Virus record (IMG/VR): IMGVR_UViG_3300000203_000003
Coordinates: 64,001 to 128,000 of that record
DNA from: a virus
Taxonomy: Duplodnaviria > Caudoviricetes
DNA length: 64,000 nt
Reading direction: 5' to 3' (one strand)
Shown one piece after another: positions 31,001 to 64,000 of the stretch (position 1 is its first letter; each line of letters begins with the position of its first letter). The notes beneath the pieces are model-generated. The model was not told where the DNA came from. It worked only from the letters and a program-made list of their open reading frames with translations, and made no database searches. The translations under genes were made by a program, and so were the position numbers.

Positions 31001-34000
31001 AGATTAATTGCTAACAACACACTGAACGTAACTGGTAATGCTAATGTCGGTAATCTGGGAACTGCCGGACTACTTGTAGCAACAGGCAACGTCTCCGGTG
31101 GAAATCTTACAACTGCTGGAATGTTAACAGTTACTGGTAACGCAAACGTAGGCAACATAGGTTCTAATATATTTACCGGTAACTCATTGACTATATCAGG
31201 TAACGCAAACGTTGCTAACCTAGGAGCATCGGGTCTTATCATATCCACAGGCAATGTGTCCGGTGGCAACATAACGACAGCCGGCAATGTAGTAGCCACT
31301 GCGAACATAACAGGTGGCAATCTAATAACAGGCGGAGTTCTATCGGTCACCGGCAACGCAAATGTTGGAAACATAGGCACCCTAGGGTTGATCGTGGCCA
31401 CAGGCAATATCAGCGCCGGCAACTTTATAACATCCGGCTCTATGTCAGTCACCGGAAATGCCAACGTTGGTAATCTAGGAACAGTTGGATTGGTAGTCGG
31501 CACCGGCAACATTACATCGAACGCAAACGTCATAACAAATAGTATTCTTGGCAGAACATCAGGTGTTACTATCACCGCAGTTGGTTCAGATCAAAATATA
31601 TCTCTGGTGCCAACTGGCAACGGCACAGTTGATGTGGGTGGAAAACGCATATCATCATTGAATGACCCGTTTAATGCGACTGACGCGGCGACCAAAGCAT
31701 ATGTTGATGCAACTACTTCATCATTGAAGGTTCTGGCGTCTGTTGTTGCTGCAACCACTGTAACTCTTACTGCGACCTATAACAACGGTGCCAGTGGATT
31801 TGGTGCTACTCTTACTGCAACAACAAACGTAGTTCTGCCGACAATAGACGGATACACTGGGTTAGTTGTTACTAATCGTGTACTTGTTAAAAATCAAGCG
31901 GATCCTATTCAAAACGGTATATATGTTGTCTCAAGTCTCGGTGTAGTAGGAGTTTCTCCTTGGATACTAACCAGAGCGACAGACTTTGATGGTGTGCCAC
32001 CCAGCGAAATAACTTCAGGTGCATTCACGTTCATTACATACGGGGTACAAGGGTCAACTGGTTGGGTAGAATCTGCTACTGGCGGTGGTCCTGGTGGCGC
32101 GATCAGACCGGGTATAGATGCTATTTCATTCACACAGTTCTCTGGTGCAGGTACATATGCAGCAGGTACTGGATTACAACTTGACGGAACGATATTCAGC
32201 ATCAGCAGCACAACAGTAACGGCAGCTTCATACGGAGGTTCTACCGCAATACCATCATTCACTGTTAATCAGCAAGGTCAACTCACTGCTGCATCAACTT
32301 CTGCGGTGATAGCTCCGGCAGGAACGTTATCCGGTGCCACACTGAACGCAACGGTAGTAACATCAAGTCTGACAAGCGTAGGAACACTCGGTAATCTAAC
32401 TGTATCCGGTAATATAGGTGCAGGCAACGTAAATGCTCCGACATTCGGTCCGCATAATGGTGCAGTAGGAACGCTTACTGCTAATACAGGTAACTTCACA
32501 TCTGTTACTGCATCGCTGACAGTTGCCGCAACCGGTAATGTATCGGGCGCAAATCTTACAACTACTGGTGTATTGTCAGTAACAGGCAATGCGAACGTTG
32601 GTAACATCGGCGCACTGAATGTAATCGGCACTACAGGTAACTTCACAACAGTTAATACTGGAACGCTGAACGCCAGCACAGTAGTAAATGTCACAGCGAC
32701 TACGGAATCTACCAGCTTAATAACAGGTTCTATTAAGACAGCAGGTGGTATGGCAATTGCCGGTAACGTAGTCATCGGAAACGAATTATATGTCGGCACC
32801 GGCGCAGCAGCAACAACATTCACTAATCCTGTTATAATCGCCAGCGATACTGGTTCAGATTTTATTCAGTTAGCATTGGTAAACACAGCCGATACTGGAT
32901 CAGCAGACGTATTAGTATACGGTGATAATGGTACAAACGATCAGGGTTGGAGCGATCTGGGCTTCACTGGTAGCAACTTCACTGACCCTTTATACACGAT
33001 AACAGGAACAAACGACGGATATGTATTTGCTCAAGGCGATACAGCGAATGTAAAGGGCGGCAATTTAGTCTTTGCAACAGGACAGTTCGGCTCTACGAAA
33101 GACTTGATCTGGGCAACAGGTGGATTCTTGGTTGCTAACGAGAAGATGCGCTTCATTCATGCAACCGGTCAGTTCTATGTTAAAACATCAACCGTGTCAA
33201 CAAGCACTTCGACCGGTGCATTGCGTGTTGCAGGCGGCGTTGGTATCGGTGGAAATGCTTATATAGGTGGAAATGCAAATGTCACAGGAAACATAAGTGC
33301 AGGTAACGTAAGTGCAACTACATTCACTGGCGCATTATCCGGCGCAGCAACCACAGCAGGTACTGTCACCACAGCAGCACAACCGAATATTACATCAGTT
33401 GGCACATTATCTTCTCTGTTGATAACCGGCAATGCTAATGCAGCAAACTTCAACGGAACGTTCTACGGAGCAGCAACTGGTCTGACCGCTATAGTGGGCG
33501 CGAATGTCACTGGTACTGTTGCTAATGCAACTTACGCGATTTCAGCAGGCAGTGCTACTACCGCAGGCACAGTAACAACAAATGCTCAACCTAACATTAC
33601 AAGCACAGGTACATTGACTACATTGACCGTTACGGGTAATATCGGTGCAGGTAACGTTAACTCTAACTTCTTTGGTTCAGGTACCGGTCTTACTTCAGTA
33701 GCCGGAGCGAATGTAACCGGTACAGTTGCCAATGCAACATACGCAGTCAGTGCAGGATCAGCTACTACAGCGGGTTCAGCTACTACAGCGGGTTCAGCTA
33801 CTACAGCGGGCTCAGCTACTACAGCGGGCACAGTCACAACTGCTGCTCAACCTAACATTACAAGCACCGGCACTCTTGCTGCGCTTATCGTAACAGGTAA
33901 TGTCACAGTTGGTAATCTTGTCACAGCGGGTTCTGGAGGCAACATAACCGGTGCTAATGTAATAACTTCGACAACAATGTCGGCAACGACAATATCTGCA

Positions 34001-35737
34001 ACAGGTAATCTATCAGGTGCTAACGTAACAGGAACGCATTATGGCGCGGCAACTGGTTTAACTTCTATTCCTGGTGGAAACGTAACCGGAGTAGTTGCAA
34101 ATGCAACCTATGCAGTAACAGCAGGAACTGCAAATGCAGTAGCAGGTGCTAATGTCAGCGGTGTAGTTGCAAATGCAACCTATGCAGTAACAGCAGGAAC
34201 TGCAAATGCAGTAGCAGGTGCTAATGTCTCGGGACAAGTAGCAAATGCTAACGTAACATTCTACACCAGTATATCTTCTGTTTCAGCAGGCACACTTTAC
34301 CCTCAGTTTGTAAATGCTACCTCAGGCAATCTTGCTACTCTTGCAAACTCTGTTTATGTTGCTAACGCTGCTAACGGATCTTTTGCTGCAACTACTTTCG
34401 TCGGTGCTTTAAGTGGACTTGCTTCAAGCGCAACAATAGCAGCAAGCGCGAACGCAGTGGCCGGAGCTAATGTATCCGGTGCGGTAGCATTTGCAACAAC
34501 AGCAAACGCAGTGGCCGGAGCTAATGTATCCGGTGCAGTAGCATTTGCAACAACAGCAAACGCAGTGGCCGGAGCTAATGTATCCGGTGCAGTAGGACTT
34601 GCAACATACGCAACTACAGCAAATGCAATAGCCGGGGCAAATGTCAGCGGTGCAGTAGGACTTGCAACATACGCAACTACAGCAAACGCAGTAGCAGGTG
34701 GCAACGTCAGTGGACAAGTCGCTAATGCTCTGGTAGCAGGAACTGTTTACACTGCCGCTCAACCAAACATCACATCAGTTGGTACATTGGCTTCATTGTT
34801 AATAACAGGCAACGCAAATGCTGCAAATTTCAACGGTACATACTATGGAGCGGCAACTGGATTGACAGCAATACCCGGTGCGAATGTCTCGGGTACTGTT
34901 GCAAATGCAACATACGCCGTAAGTGCAGGCAGTGCAGGAACAGCAACAACAGCAGGTACTGTAACTACAGCCGCGCAAGCCAATATCACCTCAGTGGGTA
35001 CTCTGACAACATTAGGAGTTAATGGTACGGTAACGGCAGTTGCGTTTACTGCTAACACCGGAGTATTTTCAGGTAATGGATCCAGTCTTACATCACTTAC
35101 GGGCGCTAATGTTACGGGTGCAGTCTCATTCGCAACTACGGCAAATGCTGTAGCAGGTGGAAATGTCAGCGGAACAGTTGCTAATGCAACATACGCAGTG
35201 TCGGCAGGTAGTGCAGGTAGTGCAACGACGGCAGGGTCAACAACTACAGTGACAACAGGCGGATCAGTAACTACAACAACGATTACAACTGGCGCAACAG
35301 CAACAGCAGGTACTATTATTGGTAACTGGTCATTGGGAGCAGGTTCTAAACTGAATGCAACTTATGCTGACTTGGCTGAATACTATGCAGCGTCACACCA
35401 GATTGAAGCTGGTACTGTTGTGGAATTAGGCGGTGATCACGAAGTTCAAGTATGTAATTCACTGATGAGTACATTGGTTGCAGGTATAGTTACAACCGAT
35501 CCAGCATATCTGATGAACGCCGGAATGGATTGTCTATTCCCTGTTGCGATAGCCTTGCAAGGACGCGTTCCGGCGAAGGTAATAGGCCCTGTCAAACGAG
35601 GTGACATGATGGTCAGCGCTGGTAACGGTCTCGCCATGGCATGTGCTTCACCTGCTATGGGAACAGTGTTGGGCAAAGCATTAACAGACTTCACTGGTGT
35701 TTCAGGCGTGATAGAAATCATGGTCGGAAGAACTTAA
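25040..35737 (+). CDS. Giant (3565 aa) repetitive tail fibre/adhesin-like virion protein
   Basis: gp9/gp10-like N-terminus (DAIRTAFQKVQTNFDEL); dozens of AQPNITSVGTL and GANVTGTVANATYA repeats; DAATKAYVD; C-terminal ADLAEYY chaperone/peptidase-like domain. Confidence 0.8.
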   Translation: MQQNIDFGTFPDDPDADAIRTAFQKVQTNFDELFDVTAGAAVNSVNRTPGIGIQVNSPTGNVVVSANIATIPMDTSTLRLRLENGLPGANGVIITGPGRTVFVDLPNSITTNNFTASGWANVTGNVIGGNINTIGQVVASGNVTGSNLNTTGIANVIGNVIGGNLTTSGKVAASGNIIGSNVTANLGLYGTTANVSGNANVGNIGSTNGVFTGNITAGNVGGANLITANYLQGTLTTAAQPNVTSVGALSALTVTGNIAGGNVNAGNLLTANYVQGTLTTAAQPNITSTGTLTGLGVNGTVTAVNITANTGVFTGNGSALNNLTGANVTGTVANATYAVSSGTAGSATTAGTVTTNAQPNITSVGTLSSLLITGNANAANFNGTFYGAGTGLTAIPGANVTGTVANATYAVSAGGSGTASTAGTVTTAAQPNITSTGTLTGLGVNGTVTAVNITANTGVFAGNGSSLTTLTGANVTGTVANATYAVSSGTAGTAGTVTTAAQPNITSTGTLSALTVTGNIGAGNINAGNMLTANYSTAVLTTAAQPNITSTGTLTGLGVNGTVTAVNITANTGVFSGNGSGLTQLAGANVTGYAPNATHANIADAANAVAGGNVSGAVGLATFATTANAVAGGNVSGQVNYAATANAVAGANVSDQVNYAATANAVAGGNVSGQVANALVAGTVYTAAQPNITSVGTLTAVTVSGNANVGNIGSTNGVFTGNISGANYVSANYFTGTLTTNDQPNITSTGTLTALTVNGNIGAGNVNAPTFGAHNGTVGATTANTGNFTTVTASLTVAATGNVSGGNLTTVGALSATGNANVGNLGTAGLVVATGNITGGNLVTGGALSVTGNANVGNIGATNYVGTAINITANANIGTTLNVTGNANVGNLGTAGLVVATGNITGGNLVTGGALSVTGNANVGNIGATSGVLTGTLSVTSNANVGNLGTAGLIIATGNISGANLTGTHYGAATGLTSIPGANVTGTVANATYAVSSGTAGTAGTVSTNAQPNITSVGTLSSLAVTGNVNAANFNGTFYGAGTGLTAIPGANVTGTVANATYAVSAGSAATAGSAGSATTAGSATTAGTVTTNAQPNITSVGTLSSLAVTATINTSNLLITGTGGAGFITIPGQSLNPPNPTAGNLLIHARTINGFTRIEQDNEAPTNLVYGRDTAIICRNDTGATINKGQAVYTSGTVSNSPQIAKALASGVATMPAIGVAMDDILTGNFGQVMVSGILVFDTSAYAPSAQVWVSPTTAGAFTATRPSGSNVVQRMGTIMVQGGPGVGQMLVLTAPALLNMETGTAAATWTANSAIANYFSGNGANLTALTGANVTGTVANATYALTSGTAGTVTTAAQPNVTSVGTLSVLAVTGNISGANLTGTHYGAATGLTAIPGANVTGTVANATYAISAGSSGTAGTVTTNAQPNITSLGSLTGLIVNGNINAGNTAAGNIVSANYVQGTLTTAAQPNITSVGLLTGLNVNDGITAANITANTGVFTGNGSSLTALTGANVTGTVANATYAVSAGSATTAGTVTTAAQPNITSVGSLGALTITGNLSSGNANLGNLAKANFFQGDGYLISNLTVSVGNVIVNGNSNVSIDLNGNVLISSGGNANIFVVTDTGANVNGYLKVSGNVAAARFTGLLAGALTIAAQPNVTTLGTMTALNVSGVSNLSVVSNVRIFGGSLNYYMTTDGNGNLSWTSGAFSPCGGTNTQVQFNDNGNFGGSANLTFNGNLLTIIGNVQSTNVLGGNVVSANFFTGTITTNAQPNITSVGTLTALIVNGNINAGNTAGGNLVSANYIQGTLITAAQPNITSVGSLSSLNVTGNANAANFNGAHYGAATGLTAIPGANVTGTVANATYAVSSGSATTAGTVTTAAQPNITSVGTLTSLIVTGNIQGSNVVAANYVGGTMTTAAQPNITSVGTLSALAVTGNISSGNANLGNLASANFITGTLTTPAQGNITSLGTLGLLFVTGNIQAERLIANNTLNVTGNANVGNLGTAGLLVATGNVSGGNLTTAGMLTVTGNANVGNIGSNIFTGNSLTISGNANVANLGASGLIISTGNVSGGNITTAGNVVATANITGGNLITGGVLSVTGNANVGNIGTLGLIVATGNISAGNFITSGSMSVTGNANVGNLGTVGLVVGTGNITSNANVITNSILGRTSGVTITAVGSDQNISLVPTGNGTVDVGGKRISSLNDPFNATDAATKAYVDATTSSLKVLASVVAATTVTLTATYNNGASGFGATLTATTNVVLPTIDGYTGLVVTNRVLVKNQADPIQNGIYVVSSLGVVGVSPWILTRATDFDGVPPSEITSGAFTFITYGVQGSTGWVESATGGGPGGAIRPGIDAISFTQFSGAGTYAAGTGLQLDGTIFSISSTTVTAASYGGSTAIPSFTVNQQGQLTAASTSAVIAPAGTLSGATLNATVVTSSLTSVGTLGNLTVSGNIGAGNVNAPTFGPHNGAVGTLTANTGNFTSVTASLTVAATGNVSGANLTTTGVLSVTGNANVGNIGALNVIGTTGNFTTVNTGTLNASTVVNVTATTESTSLITGSIKTAGGMAIAGNVVIGNELYVGTGAAATTFTNPVIIASDTGSDFIQLALVNTADTGSADVLVYGDNGTNDQGWSDLGFTGSNFTDPLYTITGTNDGYVFAQGDTANVKGGNLVFATGQFGSTKDLIWATGGFLVANEKMRFIHATGQFYVKTSTVSTSTSTGALRVAGGVGIGGNAYIGGNANVTGNISAGNVSATTFTGALSGAATTAGTVTTAAQPNITSVGTLSSLLITGNANAANFNGTFYGAATGLTAIVGANVTGTVANATYAISAGSATTAGTVTTNAQPNITSTGTLTTLTVTGNIGAGNVNSNFFGSGTGLTSVAGANVTGTVANATYAVSAGSATTAGSATTAGSATTAGSATTAGTVTTAAQPNITSTGTLAALIVTGNVTVGNLVTAGSGGNITGANVITSTTMSATTISATGNLSGANVTGTHYGAATGLTSIPGGNVTGVVANATYAVTAGTANAVAGANVSGVVANATYAVTAGTANAVAGANVSGQVANANVTFYTSISSVSAGTLYPQFVNATSGNLATLANSVYVANAANGSFAATTFVGALSGLASSATIAASANAVAGANVSGAVAFATTANAVAGANVSGAVAFATTANAVAGANVSGAVGLATYATTANAIAGANVSGAVGLATYATTANAVAGGNVSGQVANALVAGTVYTAAQPNITSVGTLASLLITGNANAANFNGTYYGAATGLTAIPGANVSGTVANATYAVSAGSAGTATTAGTVTTAAQANITSVGTLTTLGVNGTVTAVAFTANTGVFSGNGSSLTSLTGANVTGAVSFATTANAVAGGNVSGTVANATYAVSAGSAGSATTAGSTTTVTTGGSVTTTTITTGATATAGTIIGNWSLGAGSKLNATYADLAEYYAASHQIEAGTVVELGGDHEVQVCNSLMSTLVAGIVTTDPAYLMNAGMDCLFPVAIALQGRVPAKVIGPVKRGDMMVSAGNGLAMACASPAMGTVLGKALTDFTGVSGVIEIMVGRT
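33752..33830 (+). repeat. Tandem 18-nt repeat (AGSATT) x4
   Basis: TCAGCTACTACAGCGGGy units. Confidence 0.8.
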
Positions 35738-42034: not shown

Positions 42035-42113
42035 ATAAATAGTAGTGTAGTTCGCGGGAGTGGAATCCCCAACTACTCTAACGCTTTAGAGGAGCATCAG
42101 CATGACTATTTAT
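42035..42113. ncRNA. Conserved two-hairpin endonuclease-associated element, copy C
   Basis: See findings. Confidence 0.7.
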
Positions 42114-42824
42114 TACCTCATGGTTAAGACCCATAATATCACTGGGTTAAAATACCTATGTCAAACCAAACGAAAAGATCCATTAAAATATTTGGGCTCA
42201 GGTTTACATTGGGGACGGCATCTTGCCATCCATGGTAAAGCAATCACAACCCTAATCCTCAAGGAATGTAGTTCAATTGAAGAAATAAAAGAATATGGAT
42301 TATATTATAGTGAATTGTGGAATATAGTTGATAGCGATGAGTGGGCAAATCTAAAACCTGAGGATGGTCAGGGCTGGGGTGAAGGTGAACATCACCCGAT
42401 GCGTGACCCAACGATTCGCGCAAAAATACAAGGTGACAACAATTACCAACGAAAACCGGATTATAGTTGCAGCCAAACTACAATAGACAAGATATCAGGT
42501 CAAAATCATTACAAAAGTCGGTCGGGGTATATTCCTATTGAGGTAAGTCGGGCTACTAAGAGTAAAATGTCAGCGTCACACTGGACAAAACAACCAAATG
42601 CAGGTGAAGTTAAATCCAAGATATCCGGTAAAAATAACTATCAATATAATCCTACCATCTATTGTTTCCATAATACTATTAATGGAGAGATAATAAGGAT
42701 GACGCGGTCTGAATTTAAAAATTATACAAATATGCCTAACAATCGGTTAGGAGCATTGATCAATAACAAAAAATATAAAGGGTGGAAGATATTAGATATC
42801 CCACCAAATGATGTTGACATATGA
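42102..42824 (+). CDS. Free-standing Seg-like GIY-YIG endonuclease
   Basis: IYYLMVKTHNITGLKYLCQT..YLGSG; WANL; C-terminal Y.F...KGW module. Confidence 0.75.
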   Translation: MTIYYLMVKTHNITGLKYLCQTKRKDPLKYLGSGLHWGRHLAIHGKAITTLILKECSSIEEIKEYGLYYSELWNIVDSDEWANLKPEDGQGWGEGEHHPMRDPTIRAKIQGDNNYQRKPDYSCSQTTIDKISGQNHYKSRSGYIPIEVSRATKSKMSASHWTKQPNAGEVKSKISGKNNYQYNPTIYCFHNTINGEIIRMTRSEFKNYTNMPNNRLGALINNKKYKGWKILDIPPNDVDI

Positions 42825-52151: not shown

Positions 52152-54569
52152 ATGAAAACAATCGTCGTAATGCCAGGAGGCTTTCATCCGTTTCACGCAG
52201 GACATTATGCTCTGTATAAATCAGCAGTGGAGGCCTTTCCCGGCGCTGATGTGTATGTCGCTGCAACAAACGATCAAAAAGCACGACCTTTCCCGTTTGC
52301 GATTAAAGAGAAACTTGCTAAGATAGCCGGCGTTGCTCCAGGACATTTCGTTCAGGTGTCAAGTCCATTCAAAGCAGCAGAGATAACTCAGCACTACAAC
52401 CCTGATCAGGATGTGCTGATCTTCGTCCGTTCAGAGAAGGACCGAAACGAACAACCTAAGCCCGGTGGCATGAAGAAGGACGGCACCCCATCTTACTTTC
52501 AGCCATATACAGGAAAAGGTATGCAGCCGTTCAGTAAACACGCTTACTTCGCCTATCTGCCTACGGTAGAGTTTGGTCCTGGCATCACCGGCGCAACAGA
52601 GATTCGCAATGCCTGGCCGACATTGAATCCTACTCGCAAGACAGCAATGGTTATGAGCCTGTATCCAGCAACGAAACAGAATCCTCAGCTGGCTGCGAAT
52701 GTAGTCAAGATGATGGATCTTGGCATGGGCGGCCAGCCCGAAGTGGATGAGAGTAAAGAGGAGGCACTTCAGTATGCTACTCAGGCTCATGCCGGACAAA
52801 CGAGAGCAGGTGGTGCTCCTTATATTTCACATCCGATAAGTGTAGCAGATTCAATCAAGCAATACAAGAAATCACACAACCTCGATGCGTTAATCAGTGC
52901 TGCACTATTACATGATACCGTAGAAGATACTGACACCACTCATGAAGCCCTACACGATTTATTCGGTGGTTTAGTTGCCTCACTAGTTCAAGAACTAACT
53001 AGCGACAAAGAGAAGATTCAACAAATGGGCAAAGCTGATTATCTGGCACAGAAAATGGCTGCTATGAGCAGTTATGCTCTGGTGATAAAACTTGCCGATC
53101 GACTCGACAATGTTCAAGATATTGCTACTGCTAAAACTCCAGAGTGGAGGGCGAAGTATAGGGCAGAAACTGAAAAGATTTTAGACTATATTGAAAAGCA
53201 TCGCGCCTTATCAGGAACGCACCAGAAGTTAATAGAACTTATCCGTAACAAGTTAGGCGAGATTGATAGTCATCAAGGTGTAACAGAAGACACCTCATCC
53301 TCAAGTCTTCCGGATGTTCTGTATCACGGTGGTGAACACCAGATAAGCAAGTTCAGAATTCCACCCTACGGTGTATTTTTCAGTCCCCATAAAGAATGGG
53401 CAGAGGAATACGGTGACGCGCTAACTACCGCAAAAGTCAACGCCACGAAAGTGTATGTCGCCGATTCTGATAACTGGAACGATCCAAACTCGTTTGACGC
53501 TAAAGTGCTTGACGCACTGTTTGACCGTGACTATAAAACTTTGGCAGTATGTGTCAAAGTATTACAGGCTCGAGGCTATCAGGCACTTCAAACGCAGACT
53601 GACAGCGAAATGGTTGTGGTGTTCCCGGGAACTGAGATTCAAGTATTACCGCCGGATGAAGGAGTTGAGTTAAAATTCAACTCAAATTCACTCAACGAAA
53701 GTCAAATCTATTCGTATTTTAAGAAGAAATATTCTCTCTACGAAAGTGAAAAATTCCCACAGAGAATGGTATCAAGTATTAAAAAGATAAATGAAACAGA
53801 CAACCATAATGAAATTAAACAATTTATCCATCGGGTTGAAACCTTTGACTATCCTGGTCGGATCAAAGTAGGAGATTCCTTGGCAGTTTTAGATTTTGAG
53901 ATAAACTTCGCCTGGAAAGAAATTGAAGGTCGTGGATTTACACAGGCAAAAAGAATAACAAAAATATCGGCTGATAGCGCCGGAATAAATTATATAGAAT
54001 TTGAAGACGGTGACCGATATCCTAGACTTGCAAAAGCAACGTTCGGAGATAAACAACGACCCATGGAATTTGCCGCGTATTTTAAAAAATCAAATGATGC
54101 GGAACACGCCATTACGGTATTAGGGTTGATCGTGCCCGATACATGGGAATACAATACCAGTGAAATTCAACGTGGCAACACTTCTGAAGTTGACGAACAA
54201 TTCACCACTAATCTGACAACCGAGGGTGACCTAAATGAACTCCATTCGGACACCTTACATAGTTATGCAGGAAAGGCATGTGACCGTAATACCAAGAGTA
54301 TTAGGCAAGCAGATTGGAAACGAACTACCCCGGATGAGAGAGAGAAGATTCACCAAAAAGTTCTAAGAAGATGTGACGGTATAGGAAGGGCTTTGGACAA
54401 GGATCATGCCAAGCAGGAGAATGAACTGTTGAAGAATATTCCACCTCATTTACGCAAAAAATTAAGGCTTCCTGAACCATATGTTGATGAAGGCTCGGAC
54501 ATCCAGTTGTCCAAACCAATCAAACCTTTCAATCAGGTTAAACAATATCCTCTGACCGCCCTGCTATAG
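52152..54569 (+). CDS. Multidomain protein: HxGH nucleotidyltransferase + SpoT/Mesh1-like HD hydrolase + ART-like + unknown domains
   Basis: GGFHPFHAGH; AHAGQTR..PYISHP, LHDTVEDT, KLADRLDN; VLYHGG..GVFFS. Confidence 0.8.
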   Translation: MKTIVVMPGGFHPFHAGHYALYKSAVEAFPGADVYVAATNDQKARPFPFAIKEKLAKIAGVAPGHFVQVSSPFKAAEITQHYNPDQDVLIFVRSEKDRNEQPKPGGMKKDGTPSYFQPYTGKGMQPFSKHAYFAYLPTVEFGPGITGATEIRNAWPTLNPTRKTAMVMSLYPATKQNPQLAANVVKMMDLGMGGQPEVDESKEEALQYATQAHAGQTRAGGAPYISHPISVADSIKQYKKSHNLDALISAALLHDTVEDTDTTHEALHDLFGGLVASLVQELTSDKEKIQQMGKADYLAQKMAAMSSYALVIKLADRLDNVQDIATAKTPEWRAKYRAETEKILDYIEKHRALSGTHQKLIELIRNKLGEIDSHQGVTEDTSSSSLPDVLYHGGEHQISKFRIPPYGVFFSPHKEWAEEYGDALTTAKVNATKVYVADSDNWNDPNSFDAKVLDALFDRDYKTLAVCVKVLQARGYQALQTQTDSEMVVVFPGTEIQVLPPDEGVELKFNSNSLNESQIYSYFKKKYSLYESEKFPQRMVSSIKKINETDNHNEIKQFIHRVETFDYPGRIKVGDSLAVLDFEINFAWKEIEGRGFTQAKRITKISADSAGINYIEFEDGDRYPRLAKATFGDKQRPMEFAAYFKKSNDAEHAITVLGLIVPDTWEYNTSEIQRGNTSEVDEQFTTNLTTEGDLNELHSDTLHSYAGKACDRNTKSIRQADWKRTTPDEREKIHQKVLRRCDGIGRALDKDHAKQENELLKNIPPHLRKKLRLPEPYVDEGSDIQLSKPIKPFNQVKQYPLTALL

Positions 54570-55578: not shown

Positions 55579-56244
55579 ATGATTGCTTATTCTAAACTAA
55601 ATCCACCAACTGGCTTCTATGTATATATGTGGCTTCGGGAAGACCAGAGTCCATATTATGTAGGAAAAGGTATGACTCGCAGAGCTTGGCGATCAGGATC
55701 TCCAATTGATCAAACCCGCATTGTTATAGTTGAGCATATGCTCACTGAGGAGGAAGCGTTTAGTAAGGAACGACAACTCATTAAAGAGTACGGTCGTAAA
55801 GACCTCGGAACAGGCATATTAAGAAATATGACTGATGGCGGAGAAGGAGCATCAGGGCAGGTACAGACAATTGATACTATTGAAAAGCGACATAAAACAC
55901 GCAAAGAAAATGGAAATTGGGGCAACGCATCACTGATAGGTAGTAAACAAGCGGCGGAAGAAATATCCAGAAAAAGCGAAAGACAACGCGGTCAAAAACA
56001 TTCTCCTGAGCGTAATGCGAAGCGCAGTGCAGCATTGAAGGGTAGAAAGTTATCCCCTGAACATATAGCCAAGCGAACTGCTACGGTAACTGGCAGAAAA
56101 CAACGACCTGAAGTTATTGAAAACCGATCAGCGCAACTAAGAGGGCGAAAGCAAGAGGTGATAACTTGTCCACATTGTGGCAAATCCGGCGGGTGCGTAG
56201 TTATGAAGAGGCACCACTTTGACCATTGTAAATCTATCCGATAA
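55579..56244 (+). CDS. Free-standing GIY-YIG endonuclease (NUMOD3 repeats, CPHC knuckle)
   Basis: FYVYMWLRE..PYYVGKG; GRKDLGTGILRNMTDGGEG. Confidence 0.85.
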   Translation: MIAYSKLNPPTGFYVYMWLREDQSPYYVGKGMTRRAWRSGSPIDQTRIVIVEHMLTEEEAFSKERQLIKEYGRKDLGTGILRNMTDGGEGASGQVQTIDTIEKRHKTRKENGNWGNASLIGSKQAAEEISRKSERQRGQKHSPERNAKRSAALKGRKLSPEHIAKRTATVTGRKQRPEVIENRSAQLRGRKQEVITCPHCGKSGGCVVMKRHHFDHCKSIR

Positions 56245-57511: not shown

Positions 57512-57585
57512 ATAGTAGTGTAGTTCGCGGAAGTGGAATTCCCAACTACTCTAATGCCCAAGGAGCAATCAGCATGACTATTTAT
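57508..57585. ncRNA. Conserved two-hairpin endonuclease-associated element, copy E
   Basis: See findings. Confidence 0.7.
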
Positions 57586-58245
57586 TATCTTATGGTTAAG
57601 ACCCATAATATTACCGGTTTAAAATATCTTTGTCAGACAAAACGCAAAGACCCACACAAATATCTCGGATCCGGTAAAGATTGGTTGATCCATCTCATGC
57701 GTCACGGAAAAGAACATTCAACTGAAATTATTATTGCCTGTCAGAGCAGACAGGAACTGTACTATTGGGGAATGTATTATAGTAGCCTATGGAGGGTAGT
57801 AACCGGCCAGGATGATTTCGGCAATAAAATATGGGCTAACCGGATTAAAGAAAACGGCGGGGGCGAAGGTATGACTTCGGCGCTAGCCACTGAAATTCAA
57901 AATAGGCCGGCTACAAAACTTAAAAATTCAGATTCCCACAAAATGTTATGGAAAAATAAAGAATATATTAAAAAGCAAATAGATGCCCACCAATCCATAG
58001 ATTATCGCACTCGGAATAGCGTACTTCAAAAAGAAGTACAAAATAGACCCGAAGTTAAAGAAAAGTTGAGTGGCAAAAATAGTTACAAATACGATCATAC
58101 AATTTACACCTTCATCCACACTACAGGGATTATAGAAACGTTAACTCAATACGACCTAATTAGGAAATATGATCTATGTCAGCCAAATTTAAATTCAGTT
58201 GTCCGTAATAAAAGACGAATACACAAAGGCTGGACGATAGCATAA
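57574..58245 (+). CDS. Free-standing Seg-like GIY-YIG endonuclease (paralog of 42102)
   Basis: First 27 aa identical to ORF 42102; YDHTIYTF..KGW module. Confidence 0.75.
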   Translation: MTIYYLMVKTHNITGLKYLCQTKRKDPHKYLGSGKDWLIHLMRHGKEHSTEIIIACQSRQELYYWGMYYSSLWRVVTGQDDFGNKIWANRIKENGGGEGMTSALATEIQNRPATKLKNSDSHKMLWKNKEYIKKQIDAHQSIDYRTRNSVLQKEVQNRPEVKEKLSGKNSYKYDHTIYTFIHTTGIIETLTQYDLIRKYDLCQPNLNSVVRNKRRIHKGWTIA

Positions 58246-58322
58246 CCATAATCCGCCCTTGCTTCGAAAATAAACTCTCTTTAAACCAATTTTGATAAAT
58301 AGTATATAAGTGGAAATATACT

Positions 58323-60425
58323 ATGCAAATCAAACACCTCGAAGAATGTTCAACAACTGCAGGCGCTGTAGCAACATTCGCTCAACCATTTGAAACCGTT
58401 CAAAAGCGCACTCCGGAGAAGAAACTTAAAGGTAGCAATCTACTCAAAGGTATCAAAACTTCAGCGAAGTATGCTAACAGCCTACACGAAGGCGAGGGTT
58501 TCCCGCATGATGTAGATCACATGCCCGGTCAAACTATCAAACACCAGAATACAAACTGCACTGCTTGTCATGGTCGCAAGGTGCAGTATAAACTCGGTGG
58601 CAAACTATACCCAGACAATAAGAAAGGTGCCACTAAAGTTATATGCCCAACTTGCAACGGTACCGGTGATAAGGAGCATACCGACACAGAAGATGGCCGC
58701 AATTATGCTAATGCGTTTGGTACATACCAGTATGAGTCAGTCGAAGAAGGCGCCAAGGTAGATCGCATGGTCGGTCATGTCAAATCAAGCGAGAAGAAAC
58801 TTGGCAAGTCCTCGAAAGAAGCAGAAAATATCGCCTGGGCAACCGCCAACAAGCGTGGTATGCTTGATAACAAGAATAAGAAGGTGGCGGAAGGCTTCTC
58901 TAATGATATGTCTACAGAAGATATGATTGCGTATCTAAGACAGCACCACGATGAGAATCTACACCCCGATTATCTAAATCATCTTACTAATACGAACAGC
59001 AAGTTTGTGCTAAAAAATATCCCACTAAATTCCATCAGAACTGAATTGTCAGGATTAGATAGAACAAAAGTAGAGCAATACAAAAAGATGGACTTTAGCA
59101 AGGCTCCCCCTATAGTAGTTGGTAGTGATGGTAATATATTAGATGGCTATCACAGAGCCAATGTAGCAAAAGCATTAGGGATCTCTACTATTAAAGCCTA
59201 TGTTGGCATTAAAGGTCAGCAAGGTGTGGCGGAAGCAGACGATAAAAAAGAATGGCAAAAACAAAATGCTAAACCAAAACAGTTAGGAAAAACTGAAAAG
59301 TATTTCTCTACGAGACATACTACTAAAGATACTGGCGCAGCCGACAAAGAGCAAGGTGTGGCGGAAGGCTCCATATCTGATTTGTTGAACAAGGATCCTA
59401 CATCTCCAAAATTTAACGACCATTCAGCACCACGCAAAACAAAACATTCTGGTAGCACCCCGACCCCATATGAGCAAGGCAGATTAGATGCCCACAGAAA
59501 AAAGTCATATAACAATATCCACAACAGCGAACAGGATGCAGAAGATTATAAAACTGGATATAGACACGTTAAATCTAGGCAAGGTGTGGCGGAAGCAAAT
59601 ACACTACCAGCAGGACAGGCTGTTGCAGCACAACCTCAAGCAGGTAAGAAGTCTGGCCCGATAAACATGGTGGGCCCTGATAAGAACAAGCACGTAGATG
59701 TTAGTGCTAATCCTTCTGTGGCACAATCTAATGACCCGGAATTAAGACGCAAATCTGAGTGGGCGCAGCGACACTACGGTGCTACTCTAAGCCCTGATGA
59801 AGCCATGAACAAGTGGATGCAGCGAGGACTAGACATTACTGAAAAGAACGATAAGCGCCACGACGCAGAGATTGCCAAACTGATGAAAGAAATAGCCGGC
59901 CTTAAACGTATCATTAATAACCTGCACCCGGCGGCAACCGGAGCATCTAACGTTGCTGAAGGTGAAATCACAGAAGATGATGTAGTTCTATCTGCTGACC
60001 GTCGTCGCCCTAAATCAGGACTGCTATCTAAACCAGAGCAGGCGATGAACCCCGCTGATGTGGTGAAGCTTGACGTTCCATTGCTGATCAGACTGCTTGA
60101 GTTTGCCAAGGAAGATGCGGCTGACGATATGGCTCTACATGATCTTGCTGAAAAGCTAGTAGCAGGTTGCCAACGTGGCAGAACTCTGACAATGAAAGAC
60201 TATGATAGTCTTGTCCCTTCAACACCAGAAGCACCTGGCCCAGATGAACAGGAGGACTTCGAAGGCAAGTTCAATCAAGAGATGGATGAAATCAGTGATC
60301 CCGCAGTAAAGAGTTATCTTGGCAAAGCAATGACTGATACACTCACAGGTAAGAAAGATCGTAATTCTGGTATGAAACGTGCGATTAGCAGGTTAGCTGG
60401 GACAAATAAACCACTGACTAAATAA
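58323..60425 (+). CDS. Modular protein: Zn-finger, ParB/Srx-like domain and small modules joined by (QG)VAE linkers
   Basis: CTACHG..CPTCNG; PPIVV..ILDGYHRA; repeated GVAE[AG]. Confidence 0.7.
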   Translation: MQIKHLEECSTTAGAVATFAQPFETVQKRTPEKKLKGSNLLKGIKTSAKYANSLHEGEGFPHDVDHMPGQTIKHQNTNCTACHGRKVQYKLGGKLYPDNKKGATKVICPTCNGTGDKEHTDTEDGRNYANAFGTYQYESVEEGAKVDRMVGHVKSSEKKLGKSSKEAENIAWATANKRGMLDNKNKKVAEGFSNDMSTEDMIAYLRQHHDENLHPDYLNHLTNTNSKFVLKNIPLNSIRTELSGLDRTKVEQYKKMDFSKAPPIVVGSDGNILDGYHRANVAKALGISTIKAYVGIKGQQGVAEADDKKEWQKQNAKPKQLGKTEKYFSTRHTTKDTGAADKEQGVAEGSISDLLNKDPTSPKFNDHSAPRKTKHSGSTPTPYEQGRLDAHRKKSYNNIHNSEQDAEDYKTGYRHVKSRQGVAEANTLPAGQAVAAQPQAGKKSGPINMVGPDKNKHVDVSANPSVAQSNDPELRRKSEWAQRHYGATLSPDEAMNKWMQRGLDITEKNDKRHDAEIAKLMKEIAGLKRIINNLHPAATGASNVAEGEITEDDVVLSADRRRPKSGLLSKPEQAMNPADVVKLDVPLLIRLLEFAKEDAADDMALHDLAEKLVAGCQRGRTLTMKDYDSLVPSTPEAPGPDEQEDFEGKFNQEMDEISDPAVKSYLGKAMTDTLTGKKDRNSGMKRAISRLAGTNKPLTK
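59219..59595 (+). repeat. Three identical 17-nt dispersed repeats GCAAGGTGTGGCGGAAG (59219, 59351, 59579)
   Basis: Seen directly; partial copy AAGGTGGCGGAAGG at 58881. Confidence 0.9.
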
Positions 60426-60429
60426 TCGT

Positions 60430-62253
60430 ATGAGAGCATTAGAGTTTTTAAACGAAATAGCAATGAATCCGAACTCCCTGAGAAGGGACGCCGAGAAGAT
60501 CAACGCCATGGCAGGCATGGAGTTTGAGATGTATGTCCCGAACGCAGGTGGGCCAGACAATGACTACGAATCTGTGCCTGACTATAGTATGGATGAGCAG
60601 GCCAATGATATAGACTATATCATCCGCTTCTTTAACGGCGGCGATGGCTACAATGATCGTAGAGATTTAGCAATGCTGCGTGACGAACTTGAAGATGCTT
60701 ACTCTGAATGGGGCATGGAGCAACAATCTGAACAGTGGCACCAAGAAGGTAAAGAACTGCTGAAAACATACATGGAAGAAAATGATTGGGACGCCGACGA
60801 AGCAATCGATCAAGCAATGAATGATCTTGGATTCACCGCAGAAGAAAAAGACGAAGCCAAAGACGGTGGAGACTCTGCAAAAGGCATACAGACAAGTAAA
60901 GAGTTACCTGATACGCCGGCGTATCATAACTGGGTCCGAGCCGTTACCGTTGCTGAAGAAGCATTTGATGAAAAAGTAGAAGAAGAATGGGACTCTCAAG
61001 GCAGGTTATATGACAAGGCCCGTGAAGAATGGGAAAATGATTGGGAATGTCCTGATCAACGTGACTTCCTACGTGATAACAACCTCCGTCGCATGAGTGA
61101 TGTGGAAAATAACTACACTATTACATGGCCGTATCGCACCGCGCCTGAAGCCGGTGAGCTTGACATGGATTCAGTCGGTGAGATGTTCAGCAAAGCAATG
61201 GGTAAGAAAGTCATAACCGGTGGATATCATCGTGCCGGTCGTTCTCCAACTGCATACTCACTTGAACCGGACGGAAGTCTTGACTCACCGAATGAACCTG
61301 AAGATGGTGGTCTGGAATTCATCAGTCCGCCGATGTCTATCCCTGATATCATCGCTGATCTGAAGAAAGTTAAAGCATGGGCAGATGAGACCGGTTGCTA
61401 CACAAACGAATCAACCGGTCTTCACATCAATGTCAGCGTGCCTCAAGGTGCCGACAGAGACTATGTTAAACTTGCTCTGTTGCTCGGAGATGATTACATA
61501 CTTGAACAATTCGGGCGTGAAGCAAACACATTCTGTAAGTCAGCACTGGCCAAAGTAAAGCAATACGCAATGACACGTGATGCAGATGCCAAAGCAGTTC
61601 TGGAAAAGATGCGTTCAGGTCTTGACAAGTTTGCGTCAAAAGCAATTCACAGTGGCAACACAGACAAATACATCAGCATCAACAACAAAGGTGACTACAT
61701 TGAGTTCAGATCGCCCGGCGGCGATTGGTTAGATGATAACTTCGACAAGATTGAAAATACGTTGTTGAGAACTGTAGTTGCGCTTGACGCCGCAAGTGAT
61801 CCACAGAAGTATCGCAAAGAATATCTGAAGAAGCTGTACAAGATCCTGGCCCCAAAGGGTGAAGGCGATCCGATTGGTATCTTCGCCAAGTATGTCGCCG
61901 GTGATATGCCAGCAGCCGCCCTAAAAAGCTTCATCAAGCAGGTACAGCTACAAAGAAATATTAAGAAACAGGGCCCCGAAGTAGCAGCGCCGGCTGCTAG
62001 CATCAGAACACGCTCCGGTTATCTGACTCCTAATCAAGATTGGGAACCTGAAACAACTCAACCCGGCACTACGCCTGGTATGGTCCCGTGGGCGCTTGTT
62101 AATCGTAATACCGGTGAACACATTGGCGAACCATTTATGGCGCCACCGGGCGCCGTAAACGCCGGCGCATATGACCGAGCGATTGAGATAGTAAATCAAA
62201 TGGGACTAACACCGGAGCAACGACGGGAACTCATCGTTCAACCGGCAGACTAA
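60430..62253 (+). CDS. Putative amidoligase (COOH-NH2 ligase family)
   Basis: GMEFE, EPDGSL, GLEFISP, TNESTGLHINV, KY.SIN, IEFRSPGG. Confidence 0.8.
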   Translation: MRALEFLNEIAMNPNSLRRDAEKINAMAGMEFEMYVPNAGGPDNDYESVPDYSMDEQANDIDYIIRFFNGGDGYNDRRDLAMLRDELEDAYSEWGMEQQSEQWHQEGKELLKTYMEENDWDADEAIDQAMNDLGFTAEEKDEAKDGGDSAKGIQTSKELPDTPAYHNWVRAVTVAEEAFDEKVEEEWDSQGRLYDKAREEWENDWECPDQRDFLRDNNLRRMSDVENNYTITWPYRTAPEAGELDMDSVGEMFSKAMGKKVITGGYHRAGRSPTAYSLEPDGSLDSPNEPEDGGLEFISPPMSIPDIIADLKKVKAWADETGCYTNESTGLHINVSVPQGADRDYVKLALLLGDDYILEQFGREANTFCKSALAKVKQYAMTRDADAKAVLEKMRSGLDKFASKAIHSGNTDKYISINNKGDYIEFRSPGGDWLDDNFDKIENTLLRTVVALDAASDPQKYRKEYLKKLYKILAPKGEGDPIGIFAKYVAGDMPAAALKSFIKQVQLQRNIKKQGPEVAAPAASIRTRSGYLTPNQDWEPETTQPGTTPGMVPWALVNRNTGEHIGEPFMAPPGAVNAGAYDRAIEIVNQMGLTPEQRRELIVQPAD

Positions 62254-62254
62254 T

Positions 62255-62641
62255 ATGAGAGCCACAGAGTTTCTATCCGAGAGTCAGCAAACAACGCTGA
62301 ATGATTTATACGACAGTGATCTTCCGGGGCGCGATGAATCTCTATGGGATGAGATAGGAACAATGGATCTTGACACGCCGTTGATGATTCATACGATGCC
62401 CCGATACAAAATAGAAATCATGTTGCTTGGTCAATACCGGGTCGAGCACCTTGATGAAATTGTTGACATGATGGCCCCGGATCAGAAAGAAATTCTTGAA
62501 CGCTACATGAATGATCCAACATTAGCTGACAAAGTTATTGTGATATCTGAGCATAGGATCATCGACGGCAATCATCGTGCGTTGGCAGCAGCATATAAAG
62601 GCACTTCGATTAAATACATTGATCTATCAGAACTACAATGA
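62255..62641 (+). CDS. ParB/Srx-like domain protein
   Basis: IIDGNHRALAA; N-terminus MRATEFLSE. Confidence 0.7.
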   Translation: MRATEFLSESQQTTLNDLYDSDLPGRDESLWDEIGTMDLDTPLMIHTMPRYKIEIMLLGQYRVEHLDEIVDMMAPDQKEILERYMNDPTLADKVIVISEHRIIDGNHRALAAAYKGTSIKYIDLSELQ

Positions 62642-64000
62642 GAGCCCATATATTTCTATACGAAACAATAGATCCTACAAGAGAGGATCTGGTCAGCGTG
62701 GCTCAATGGCTACACGCCGAACCTGATCAGATTGAAGTTCATATCAAGCATGAACCTATTGACAAGTTCCTGGGTCAGATCAAAGAGATGCACGGAACCT
62801 TCAATGAGTTTCCCAAAGACGAACGGCGAACAAACAAGATTCTTCGTCTGTTGAAACAAGGTGCCACTCCGATGCCAATGTATGTGGAGCAGGGCGATCC
62901 TGATCTATTCGTCATGGAAGGTCGCCATCGTATGGTTGCGTTCTGGCTCGCCGGAATGAAGACAGTTCCCGTGGCGTATGCGTCAAAGAAGTTAGACGAA
63001 ACAATAAATCCTGATATTCTTAATAAAAAATTCAATCATACTCAAGAGATTGGTGATTATACTTACAAAGCGTCAGTTGAGATATTTATGGATGAACCAT
63101 TGTTGAACATTAAAGCATATGATGGTAATAAAGAAATAGGTCAAATATTGTTTCAAATATTTGACTGGGAAGATGATACGAACGATGGATACATGGAAAG
63201 TGGCGGCACTGAAGTTGATCCAAAATATAGAAATAAAGGTGTAGCATCCACTATGTATGCGTATGCGAAGATGTTGGGCAATGATATAAGACCTAGTTTT
63301 CAACGAACTACAGCGGGTAGAGGAATGTGGGACGCATGGCAAAAGTCAGGTGATGATAAACATCTCGTCGCTGAGGATTCCTATAGTCCGCCAACACTAC
63401 ACACCGGTGACAAAATTTTGAAGGGAAAATTTAAGAACAGTCCTGCTGAGATTAAAGGCTTCGGTAAGGACAAACATAACCAGCCAACCTTGCGGACAAA
63501 TAAAGGTGACATACAGTTGTTCAAGCCTCGAGTGGTTAAACTTATGCCGGATAAATTAGATGAATACGAGCGTGATACTCCCAACAGCAGACAAATCTTC
63601 TCCAAGTTAGAAGGGCTCGGATACAAGAAGTTAGGTCACGGTGCTGACGCCACAGTGTGGGCGAAGGATGATAATCATGTCATCAAGATTCTGATGCCCA
63701 GACGCACTTTGCCAAGTGATGTCACCAATGCTGAAAAAGGCTTTATGACCTTTTATGAATTCTGTAAAAAGCATCCGGAGTTACCTAATCTGCCGCGATT
63801 TATTGATATTGGTGGGCAAGGAACTACTGTGTTTGAAATTAACGGGACGCCGTATAGACAAATCGCAATGGAACGACTGTTGCCGATTCCAGACAAAAGC
63901 TTTGAGCAACGCATAGTGTGGTTGCTGAGTGATCTAGCAAAGATCAGAGCGCCCTGGAGCAATGTAGTCAGCATGTTGAAGAAGCCGGGTACTTGGCCTC
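62638..64000 (+). CDS. Multidomain protein (truncated by window end): ParB-like + GNAT acetyltransferase + small domain + protein-kinase-like
   Basis: Manually translated, open to window end: MRAHIFLYE; VMEGRHR; VDPKYRNKGVAS; LGHGADATVW..VIKI..PNLPRF..IAMERL. Confidence 0.8.
   Translation, partial: MRAHIFLYETIDPTREDLVSVAQWLHAEPDQIEVHIKHEPIDKFLGQIKEMHGTFNEFPKDERRTNKILRLLKQGATPMPMYVEQGDPDLFVMEGRHRMVAFWLAGMKTVPVAYASKKLDETINPDILNKKFNHTQEIGDYTYKASVEIFMDEPLLNIKAYDGNKEIGQILFQIFDWEDDTNDGYMESGGTEVDPKYRNKGVASTMYAYAKMLGNDIRPSFQRTTAGRGMWDAWQKSGDDKHLVAEDSYSPPTLHTGDKILKGKFKNSPAEIKGFGKDKHNQPTLRTNKGDIQLFKPRVVKLMPDKLDEYERDTPNSRQIFSKLEGLGYKKLGHGADATVWAKDDNHVIKILMPRRTLPSDVTNAEKGFMTFYEFCKKHPELPNLPRFIDIGGQGTTVFEINGTPYRQIAMERLLPIPDKSFEQRIVWLLSDLAKIRAPWSNVVSMLKKPGTWP

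Follow-up and report, generated by a model that had tools for sequence, protein, structure and literature searches.

A fixed coding DNA word at the module junctions of a candidate capsid-cargo polyprotein in an uncultured T4-like phage

The subject of this analysis is a 64,000-nt stretch of viral DNA (the window; positions 64,001 to 128,000 of the IMG/VR record IMGVR_UViG_3300000203_000003) and, within it, the open reading frame (ORF) P0001, along with a 17-nt DNA word, GCAAGGTGTGGCGGAAG, that recurs at the junctions between the modules of the encoded protein. The viral record is 141,978 bp long and 41% complete, and its source is, on sequence grounds, an uncultured giant T4-like phage. Coordinates are those of the window unless marked as genome coordinates, aa stands for amino acids, and a slash in a peptide marks the end of a putative cleavage site. 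The features of P0001 and the related sites, all on the plus strand, are as follows.

58323-60425, plus strand: ORF P0001, a multi-module late protein of 700 aa, apparently a capsid-cargo or 'polyvalent'-type polyprotein
58294-58310, plus strand: late-promoter-like GATAAATA / TATATAAG boxes located 5' of P0001, found by sequence inspection
58323-58346, plus strand: MQIKHLEE, candidate leader for targeting and cleavage, whose final L-E-E fits the [LIVM]-x-E rule
58347-58748, plus strand: module M1, aa 9-142, in which the zinc-finger motif CxxCxGxG is present twice (DnaJ_CXXCXGXG, E 5.7e-4, below the Pfam cut-off), ending in SVEE/G
58749-58892, plus strand: module M2, aa 143-190, a strongly conserved peptide of 46-48 aa (EGAKVDRMV...NKRGMLDNKNKK)
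58881-58895, plus strand: partial linker AAGGTGGCGGAAGGC at the M2/M3 junction (AAG AAG GTG GCG GAA GGC, KKVAEG)
58893-59234, plus strand: module M3, aa 191-304, predicted ParB-N/sulfiredoxin-like fold with a DGYHR motif
59219-59235, plus strand: 17-mer copy 1, exact match (QQGVAE/A)
59235-59366, plus strand: module M4, aa 305-348, a 44-codon cassette that recurs elsewhere
59351-59367, plus strand: 17-mer copy 2, exact match (EQGVAE/G)
59367-59594, plus strand: module M5, aa 349-424, a 76-codon cassette that recurs elsewhere
59579-59595, plus strand: 17-mer copy 3, exact match (RQGVAE/A)
59595-59960, plus strand: module M6, aa 425-546, starting with ANTLPAGQAVAAQ; in the alignment, relatives have ...RPVAE/A at this place (a putative decayed site)
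59952-59960, plus strand: SNVAE/G site in a non-consensus spelling (GTT GCT GAA), kept as ASNVAEG in the relatives P0002-P0006
59961-60422, plus strand: module M7, aa 547-700, the C-terminal part conserved among relatives of P0001
53274-53288, plus strand: decayed linker CAAGGTGTAACAGAA (CAA GGT GTA ACA GAA GAC, QGVTE), in frame in the ORF 52152-54569

All three exact copies of the 17-mer are in frame in P0001 (G CAA GGT GTG GCG GAA G, encoding QGVAE), with a spacing of 132 nt (44 codons) from copy 1 to copy 2 and of 228 nt (76 codons) from copy 2 to copy 3. No further copy is present on either strand of the 141,978-bp record, with none at all on the minus strand, and 100 shuffles of the sequence, with up to three mismatches allowed, produced a mean of 0.15 matches, none of the shuffles reaching three. 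The 13-mer core, GGTGTGGCGGAAG, has one more copy at genome position 25814, inside another ORF (genome 24230-26092). The partial linker shares 12 nt, GTGGCGGAAGGC, with the consensus, starting from position 58884, and the sequence at 53274, located between HD and ART-like domains, differs from the consensus by three G-to-A changes. The initial annotation, which was based on the sequence alone, had reported the three exact copies, the partial copy at 58881 and the QGVTE relic at 53274, and all of these were recovered. It had also described the copies as separating unrelated in-frame modules, in agreement with the finding that the modules of P0001 are mutually unrelated.

The spelling of the linker was examined in 80 loci that were fetched by protein similarity to P0001 and with peptide patterns lacking the linker, and in 16 further loci fetched with M3 and with M4-M5. 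Together with the record that includes the window, these yield 103 distinct in-frame GVAE linkers, for which the remainder of the same ORFs, outside the linkers, served as the codon background. The valine is encoded by GTG in 82 of the 103 linkers, compared with 12% in the background (p ~1e-54), and the alanine by GCG in 89 of 103, compared with 7% (p ~5e-85); these are the rarest valine and alanine codons of these ORFs. The codons that are common in the background are also held, namely, GGT for glycine (95/103 vs 54%, p ~3e-17), GAA for glutamate (95/103 vs 80%, p ~7e-4) and CAA for glutamine (62/63 vs 79%, p ~7e-6). The constraint extends to the neighboring positions: the codon before the linker is CAA, GAA or AAA in 91 of the 103 cases, with a Gln, Glu or Lys codon ending in G in only one of 92, and the codon after the linker begins with G (Gly, Glu, Asp or Ala) in 96 of 103. 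The flanking residues thus vary solely among codons that keep the same bases, which shows that the conserved element is the DNA word AAGGTGTGGCGGAAG, beyond the peptide alone. In non-linker contexts, VAE is spelled with GTG in 7% and with GCG in 0% of the cases, and silent positions vary freely in the capsid-targeting leaders even though these, too, finish with a protease-type site.

Within the fetched loci (567 kb), all 57 occurrences of the 13-mer core are on the coding strand, and each complete genome carries 1-5 clustered copies on one strand. The 16-mer is found in more than 120 viral contigs from many samples; collection-wide, among the matches listed, the consensus often occurs in 2-4 copies per stretch, whereas the synonymous-variant controls always occur once. 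The core of the linker has a guanine plus cytosine (GC) content of 69%, compared with 44% for the genome. Almost all variants of the linker are G-to-A changes (GTA, GCA), which look like decay from the consensus. The initial annotation had noted that the synonymous positions of the copies are identical and had concluded that the DNA itself is conserved. This conclusion holds up among the relatives, where the linker codons stay fixed while the flanking modules diverge by 15-25%, and the suggested count of the motif across the genome and in related phages reveals a word that is rare in each genome (1-5 copies) yet present in more than 120 viral contigs.

Two other roles of the word were ruled out. 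A chi-like or strand-neutral DNA signal does not fit because the 13-mer is confined to the coding strand and all the copies examined are in-frame GVAE linkers. A Shine-Dalgarno-like role is rejected as well, given that this phage uses AAAGGAG and never AAGGTG, and that the linker is not followed by a start codon.

The units between the copies are found in other phages, in other surroundings. A search of 5.8 billion proteins returned 214 relatives of P0001, of which 120 were examined. The N-terminus (aa 1-56) and the C-terminus (aa 466-700) are common to P0001 and relatives that differ from it in the middle modules. Across the set, one or a few modules of P0001 are found in many combinations, such as M3 alone, M6+M7, M1+M2+M6+M7, M4+M6+M7 and M2+M3+M6+M7. 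The M5 module in the loci L328 and L329 is 84.6% identical to that of P0001 at the nucleotide level, with the homology running from GAGCAAGGTGTGGCGGAAGGC to AAGCAAGGTGTGGCGGAAG; both linkers are 100% identical and the interior is 15% diverged. For M4, the homology with L331 (93% nucleotide identity) likewise extends from linker to linker, and another locus, L332, is 100% identical to the window from the linker onward, next to an unrelated upstream flank. The homology of M3 with four loci (79-88% nucleotide identity) starts at GTGGCGGAAGGC in L333 and L334, and a few bases upstream in L335 and L336. Most of the homology ends of M3, M4 and M5 elsewhere thus lie in or next to the repeats. P0003-P0006 and P0095 were compared at the protein level. 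M5 is present with both linkers at 100% aa identity in P0095, the rest of which is unrelated, and M4 recurs at 91-100% aa identity in other contexts in seven relatives (P0003, P0004, P0006, P0008, P0010, P0015 and P0016). Identity between P0001 and its closest relatives, P0003 and P0004, is 100% through M4 and up to the end of the second linker; these two then continue with ANTQPAGQA..., the sequence that follows the third linker in P0001, so that M5 is lacking. Because this junction skips M5 alone, P0001 differs from P0003/P0004 by exactly one repeat-to-repeat unit.

The same pattern is apparent beyond the modules of the window, in an all-against-all blastn comparison of 120 open frames with at least two linkers each. 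The left ends of the high-scoring segment pairs (HSPs) concentrate 5-9 nt before the Val codon and the right ends 9-14 nt after it, that is, at the edges of the linker, where 29% of all HSP ends are located, compared with 5-7% by chance. When the HSPs that reach a linker are sorted by identity, those of 80-98% stop there in 518 cases and continue across in only 22, which means that neighboring modules become unlinked at very small divergence; at 98% identity or higher, 68 cross and six end. The comparison of the loci L021 and L013 shows the breaks directly. L021 contains 209 nt and 1353 nt of extra sequence, each piece bounded by two linkers, and the left flank of the single L013 linker matches that of the first L021 copy and the right flank that of the second, which places the crossover inside GGTGTGGCGGAAG. 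Modules of 165-180 nt are 97-98.7% identical among L106, L016 and L209 and between L101 and L180, with unrelated flanks on both sides and both breaks located in linkers. In every indel junction examined, at least one of the two phages has an [LIVM]-x-E site. Splitting the proteins at VAE yields 492 modules in 288 families, in many orders, with tandem duplicates and with up to 13 modules chained in one ORF. The proposal of the initial annotation that the linkers are sites of cassette-like gain and loss of modules is, as far as the pattern goes, supported by these breakpoints inside the repeat, the variable module order, which speaks against the fixed order envisaged as the contrary outcome, and the fixed codons.

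No Pfam family was matched in a scan of the whole of P0001, the PHROGs scan produced a single weak match to a family of unknown function (E 4.5e-4), and neither DNA nor protein queries found a match among GenBank phages. The leader of P0001 has the form M[QK]I[KS][HN]L.E[CT] in relatives, ending in an L-x-E site. Words of the TATAAATA type are enriched upstream of the genes of this phage, and the boxes at 58294-58310 are probably a promoter. M2 was detected in 69 of the fetched loci, from many phages, at ~55-93% identity, and forms the C-terminal gene end in 23 of these; M2 comes right after an [LIVM]-x-E site in nearly all loci listed and, where it is not terminal, is itself followed by another such site. 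This module (EGAKVDRMVKH..SEKKLGKS..EAENIAWATANKRGMLDNKNKK) is by far the best conserved one and might act more generally, for instance in binding to the core or to DNA.

The AlphaFold model of M3, built with nine homologues, has a pLDDT (predicted local distance difference test) score of 82.5, and the top Foldseek matches of this model are almost all ParB-N, Noc and sulfiredoxin chains, with probabilities of 0.93-1.0; the QGVAE tail is modeled as disordered, consistent with an exposed linker. M3 alone has no Pfam match and no sequence match in the Protein Data Bank (PDB), and the precomputed ParBc labels on relatives were not recovered at E 0.01. The 'ParB-like' label of the initial annotation thus stands at the level of the predicted fold but not at the level of sequence, where matches are missing. 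Apart from M3, the effector-type domains of P0001 include the DnaJ-type fingers of M1, below the cut-off, and relatives of P0001 carry GNAT, NUDIX, NTase and deaminase domains. At the beginning of M6 (59595-59636, aa 425-438), P0001 has AGQAVAAQPQ/AGKKSGP where the closest relatives have NRPVAE/AGKKSGP preceded by ~85 extra residues, apparently the result of a deletion that inactivated the site, with VAA replacing VAE.

The record encodes a UvsX/RecA-like recombinase (genome 28331-29092), whose identity to the recombinases of three complete ~350-kb genomes, reached through the loci L022, L028 and L012, is 74-76%. These three relatives encode, above the cut-off, a Peptidase_S77 (T4 gp21-type) prohead protease next to scaffold and gp23 genes, and the N-terminal part of their gp23 capsid protein contains an aliphatic-Ala-Glu site (...KKQLLAE/SSAG). 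The T4 gp21 protease cuts according to the rule [LI]-x-E. Peptidase families, including the zincin-like MPTase, were not found in Pfam scans of P0001 or its neighbors. Downstream of P0001, the following is observed.

60430-64000, plus strand: three genes (starts at 60430, 62255 and 62638) with MRAxEF[LI]xE leaders, apparently T4-like capsid-targeting leaders

Five consecutive genes after P0001 start with MRAxEF[LI]xE, including those at genome positions 128325 and 128897, and two more are found at genome 20718 and 21098; this leader resembles the T4 leader MKTYQEFIAE. Most of these seven genes begin within a few bases of the previous gene, with no ribosome-binding site apparent, so that their translation may be coupled.

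Several other genes deserve mention. The product of the ORF 52152-54569 (805 aa) resembles cytidylyltransferases at the N-terminus and further contains an HD_4 domain and a region with an ART-PolyVal match (the ART-PolyVal and cytidylyltransferase matches are both sub-threshold in the Pfam scan); EVDE, QGVTE and SLNE sites separate these parts. Because an enzyme domain begins at residue 2, this protein has no targeting leader. The ORF at 55579-56244, which sits among the polyprotein genes, matches homing-endonuclease families in PHROGs. The one at 57574-58245, directly upstream of P0001, has no PHROG match, but its N-terminus is near-identical to that of 42102-42824, and it may be a nuclease gene too. 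Outside the window, the ORF at genome 24230-26092 (L082:4230-6092) encodes a 620-aa protein without a Pfam family and with many [LIVM]-x-E sites, among them a GHGVAED site spelled with the 13-mer GGTGTGGCGGAAG, and is located near two genes with a targeting leader. The largest ORF in the window (25040-35737) encodes 3565 aa.

Taken together, these observations are best accounted for, with a probability of roughly 0.6, if the junction in P0001 is both a protease site and a GC-rich stretch of microhomology for in-frame cassette exchange. P0001 would be a capsid-cargo polyprotein made of a leader and about seven unrelated modules, joined by x-[VLIM]-x-Glu junctions of which Q-G-V-A-E is the commonest. 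The junction peptide would be cut by a T4 gp21-type prohead protease, so that the modules, loaded into the head on one chain, would be cut apart and probably ejected with the DNA. At the DNA level, the junctions share the fixed 15-17-nt GC-rich word, a pattern that is directly observed, and because all copies are in the same phase, any crossover, annealing or template switch between them would stay in frame. Such exchange could involve copies in the same gene, in different genes or in co-infecting phages, resulting in precise deletion, duplication, insertion or replacement of whole modules. The likely agent is the phage's own general recombination, given the presence of a UvsX-like recombinase, as proposed for PeSL cassettes. 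The spelling might be kept because consensus copies continually regenerate the junctions and because the cassettes that retain the consensus are the ones that spread, countering the G-to-A decay, and the two rarest, GC-ending codons would stabilize a short heteroduplex. Under this scheme, DNA identity would cause the exchanges rather than mark the places where the products survive.

Several points weigh against this interpretation. Its main weakness is that selection for intact modules alone would also put the surviving breakpoints between modules. For homologous recombination, a match of 15-17 nt is short. In addition, little DNA is shared at some of the junctions, which are located at variant sites (GAMSE against RSLNE, DIDE against QVDE). 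The comparison of synonymous change at orthologous linkers with that in their flanks gave no signal, with only five usable pairs because homology almost never spans a linker. The linker variants are not clustered within loci (p 0.21), so there is no sign of local homogenization. Finally, a protease gene was not found in the 41%-complete record itself.

The same facts can be read in other ways. The spelling might serve the messenger RNA or its translation, through a ribosome pause at the rare GTG GCG pair or a Shine-Dalgarno-like AAGG, with the breakpoints resulting from the survival of whole-module recombinants. This possibility draws on the rarity of GTG and GCG, which are used less than any other Val and Ala codons in these ORFs, on the occurrence within the linker of AAGG, the core of the ribosome-binding sites of this phage, and on the junctions with little DNA identity, but it appears unlikely. 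All silent positions are fixed, including those of the common CAA, GGT and GAA, along with the neighbors (NAA before and G after), and because common codons and neighboring bases are also fixed, sequence identity rather than codon rarity is indicated. Furthermore, AAGGTG is never a ribosome-binding site in this genome, an Rfam search gave no match, and no RNA fold is shared around the three copies (z -0.4 to -1.8). Somewhat less likely still is passive descent, whereby the linker would be only a protease site, with the identity left over from recent duplication of the linker along with a module and without any effect on recombination. Modules that have diverged by 15-25% in DNA keep 100% identical linkers at both ends, the consensus is common to more than 100 contigs from many samples, and the linkers were not copied along with the modules because the flanking modules are unrelated; these facts outweigh the resemblance of the variants (GTA, GCA) to simple G-to-A decay and the relic at 53274, which shows that decay does occur.

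The recognition of the linker DNA by a dedicated, sequence-specific nuclease or recombinase of the phage, in a homing- or integron-like capture, is quite improbable. Homing-endonuclease genes do lie between the polyprotein genes (55579-56244 by PHROGs, 57574-58245 by resemblance only), and in phages, nuclease genes have been reported to flank regions of genetic exchange (PMC10448857). However, no such enzyme is linked to the motif, no tyrosine integrase (Phage_integrase) match was found in four genomes (G000-G003) in which the controls matched, the linker copies contain no inverted repeat, common hairpin or attC-like structure, and general T4-type recombination is enough for PeSL cassettes (PMC2839356). 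An assembly artefact, in which the mosaics are chimeric metagenome assemblies joined at a short repeat, is hardly credible: the same modules are found at 75-98%, not 100%, identity in different contexts and different samples, the pattern is present in several hundred proteins from independent sources, and complete 350-kb genomes show the same architecture, even though all the sequences are metagenome contigs and some matches of a linker with its flank span only 20-24 nt, close to the smallest assembly k-mers.

A more far-reaching version of the junction-exchange reading can be put forward only tentatively, as less probable than the combination of protease site and microhomology by itself. In giant T4-like phages, a 15-nt coding sequence might have come under selection to act as a recombination site, giving rise to a genuine in-frame cassette system, the equivalent of exon shuffling in prokaryotic viruses. 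Annealing would be stabilized by the choice of rare GC-rich codons, a dedicated factor might help, and the modules would circulate among phages as selfish cassettes, possibly via excised circles, such that the capsid-delivered anti-host kit is re-dealt within a few percent of divergence.

If the dual role of the junction is real, one short sequence allows numerous small effectors to enter the capsid under a shared address tag, with the head protease releasing them, and the same sequence lets evolution add, drop and swap effectors with the reading frame intact. This would explain the fast turnover of the repertoire of ejected proteins in giant phages, where adjacent modules are already unlinked at 2-10% DNA divergence, and would constitute a rare, tangible case of recombination keeping silent codon positions constant. 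With the 15-mer as a probe, hundreds of unknown capsid-delivered modules could be mined from metagenomes, and T4-based vectors could borrow the principle to carry modular cargo.

A literature search, the coverage of which is incomplete, found no published description of such a linker. By function, the proteins would correspond to T4 internal proteins joined into polyproteins, and the junction to a coding, in-frame form of a PeSL repeat. The internal proteins of T4 (IPI, IPII, IPIII and Alt) are late proteins with a short N-terminal prohead-core leader that are cut by the gp21-family protease after aliphatic-x-Glu and ejected with the DNA; they are highly diverse, with the leader alone conserved (PMC3012670; PMC5694885). 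The present system is similar in that the neighbors of P0001 start with MRAxEF[LI]xE and the relatives encode Peptidase_S77. The T4 internal proteins, however, are small and single and are cut once, at the leader, in contrast to the up to 13 modules per ORF with predicted internal sites described here, and the fixed DNA spelling of the internal site sets the linker apart from them.

The polyvalent proteins of phages and conjugative elements (Iyer et al. 2017) combine 2-15 unrelated effector-type domains, including ParB-like, ART, HD/RelA-SpoT-like, NTase and GNAT domains, enter the host together with the invading DNA, show extensive mosaicism and have been proposed to be processed via a built-in zincin-like MPTase domain; in a text search, the words 'linker' and 'shuffling' were not found in that article (PMC5512222). 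P0001, its neighbor 52152-54569 and the relatives similarly carry several unrelated effector-type domains per polypeptide but, unlike in polyvalent proteins, the MPTase domain was not found here and the junctions fit the prohead protease. Integron cassettes differ from the modules described here because the latter lack both an integrase match and a structured attC-type site.

Exchange at short conserved coding motifs has a precedent in the T-even adhesins, where segments are swapped in frame at or near the glycine-rich motifs of gp38 and the His boxes of gp37, giving rise to chimeras (PMC3157838). These motifs are parts of one folded domain with a fixed order, in which deletion of a segment is lethal, whereas the modules of P0001 and its relatives are independent, and their number and order are free. 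In the PeSL cassettes of T4-type phages, promoter/stem-loop repeats flank variable cassettes, and the insertions, deletions and replacements that separate close relatives have their breaks at the motif; no dedicated recombinase is known, general recombination is invoked, and mini-circles have been shown by inverse polymerase chain reaction (PMC2839356; PMC4122927). The likeness extends to a repeated DNA motif that flanks cassettes, is conserved beyond the coding need and contains the breakpoints. PeSL repeats, however, are intergenic and regulatory and move whole genes, whereas the linker described here lies inside an ORF, is coding, spans 15-17 nt and apparently moves modules in frame.

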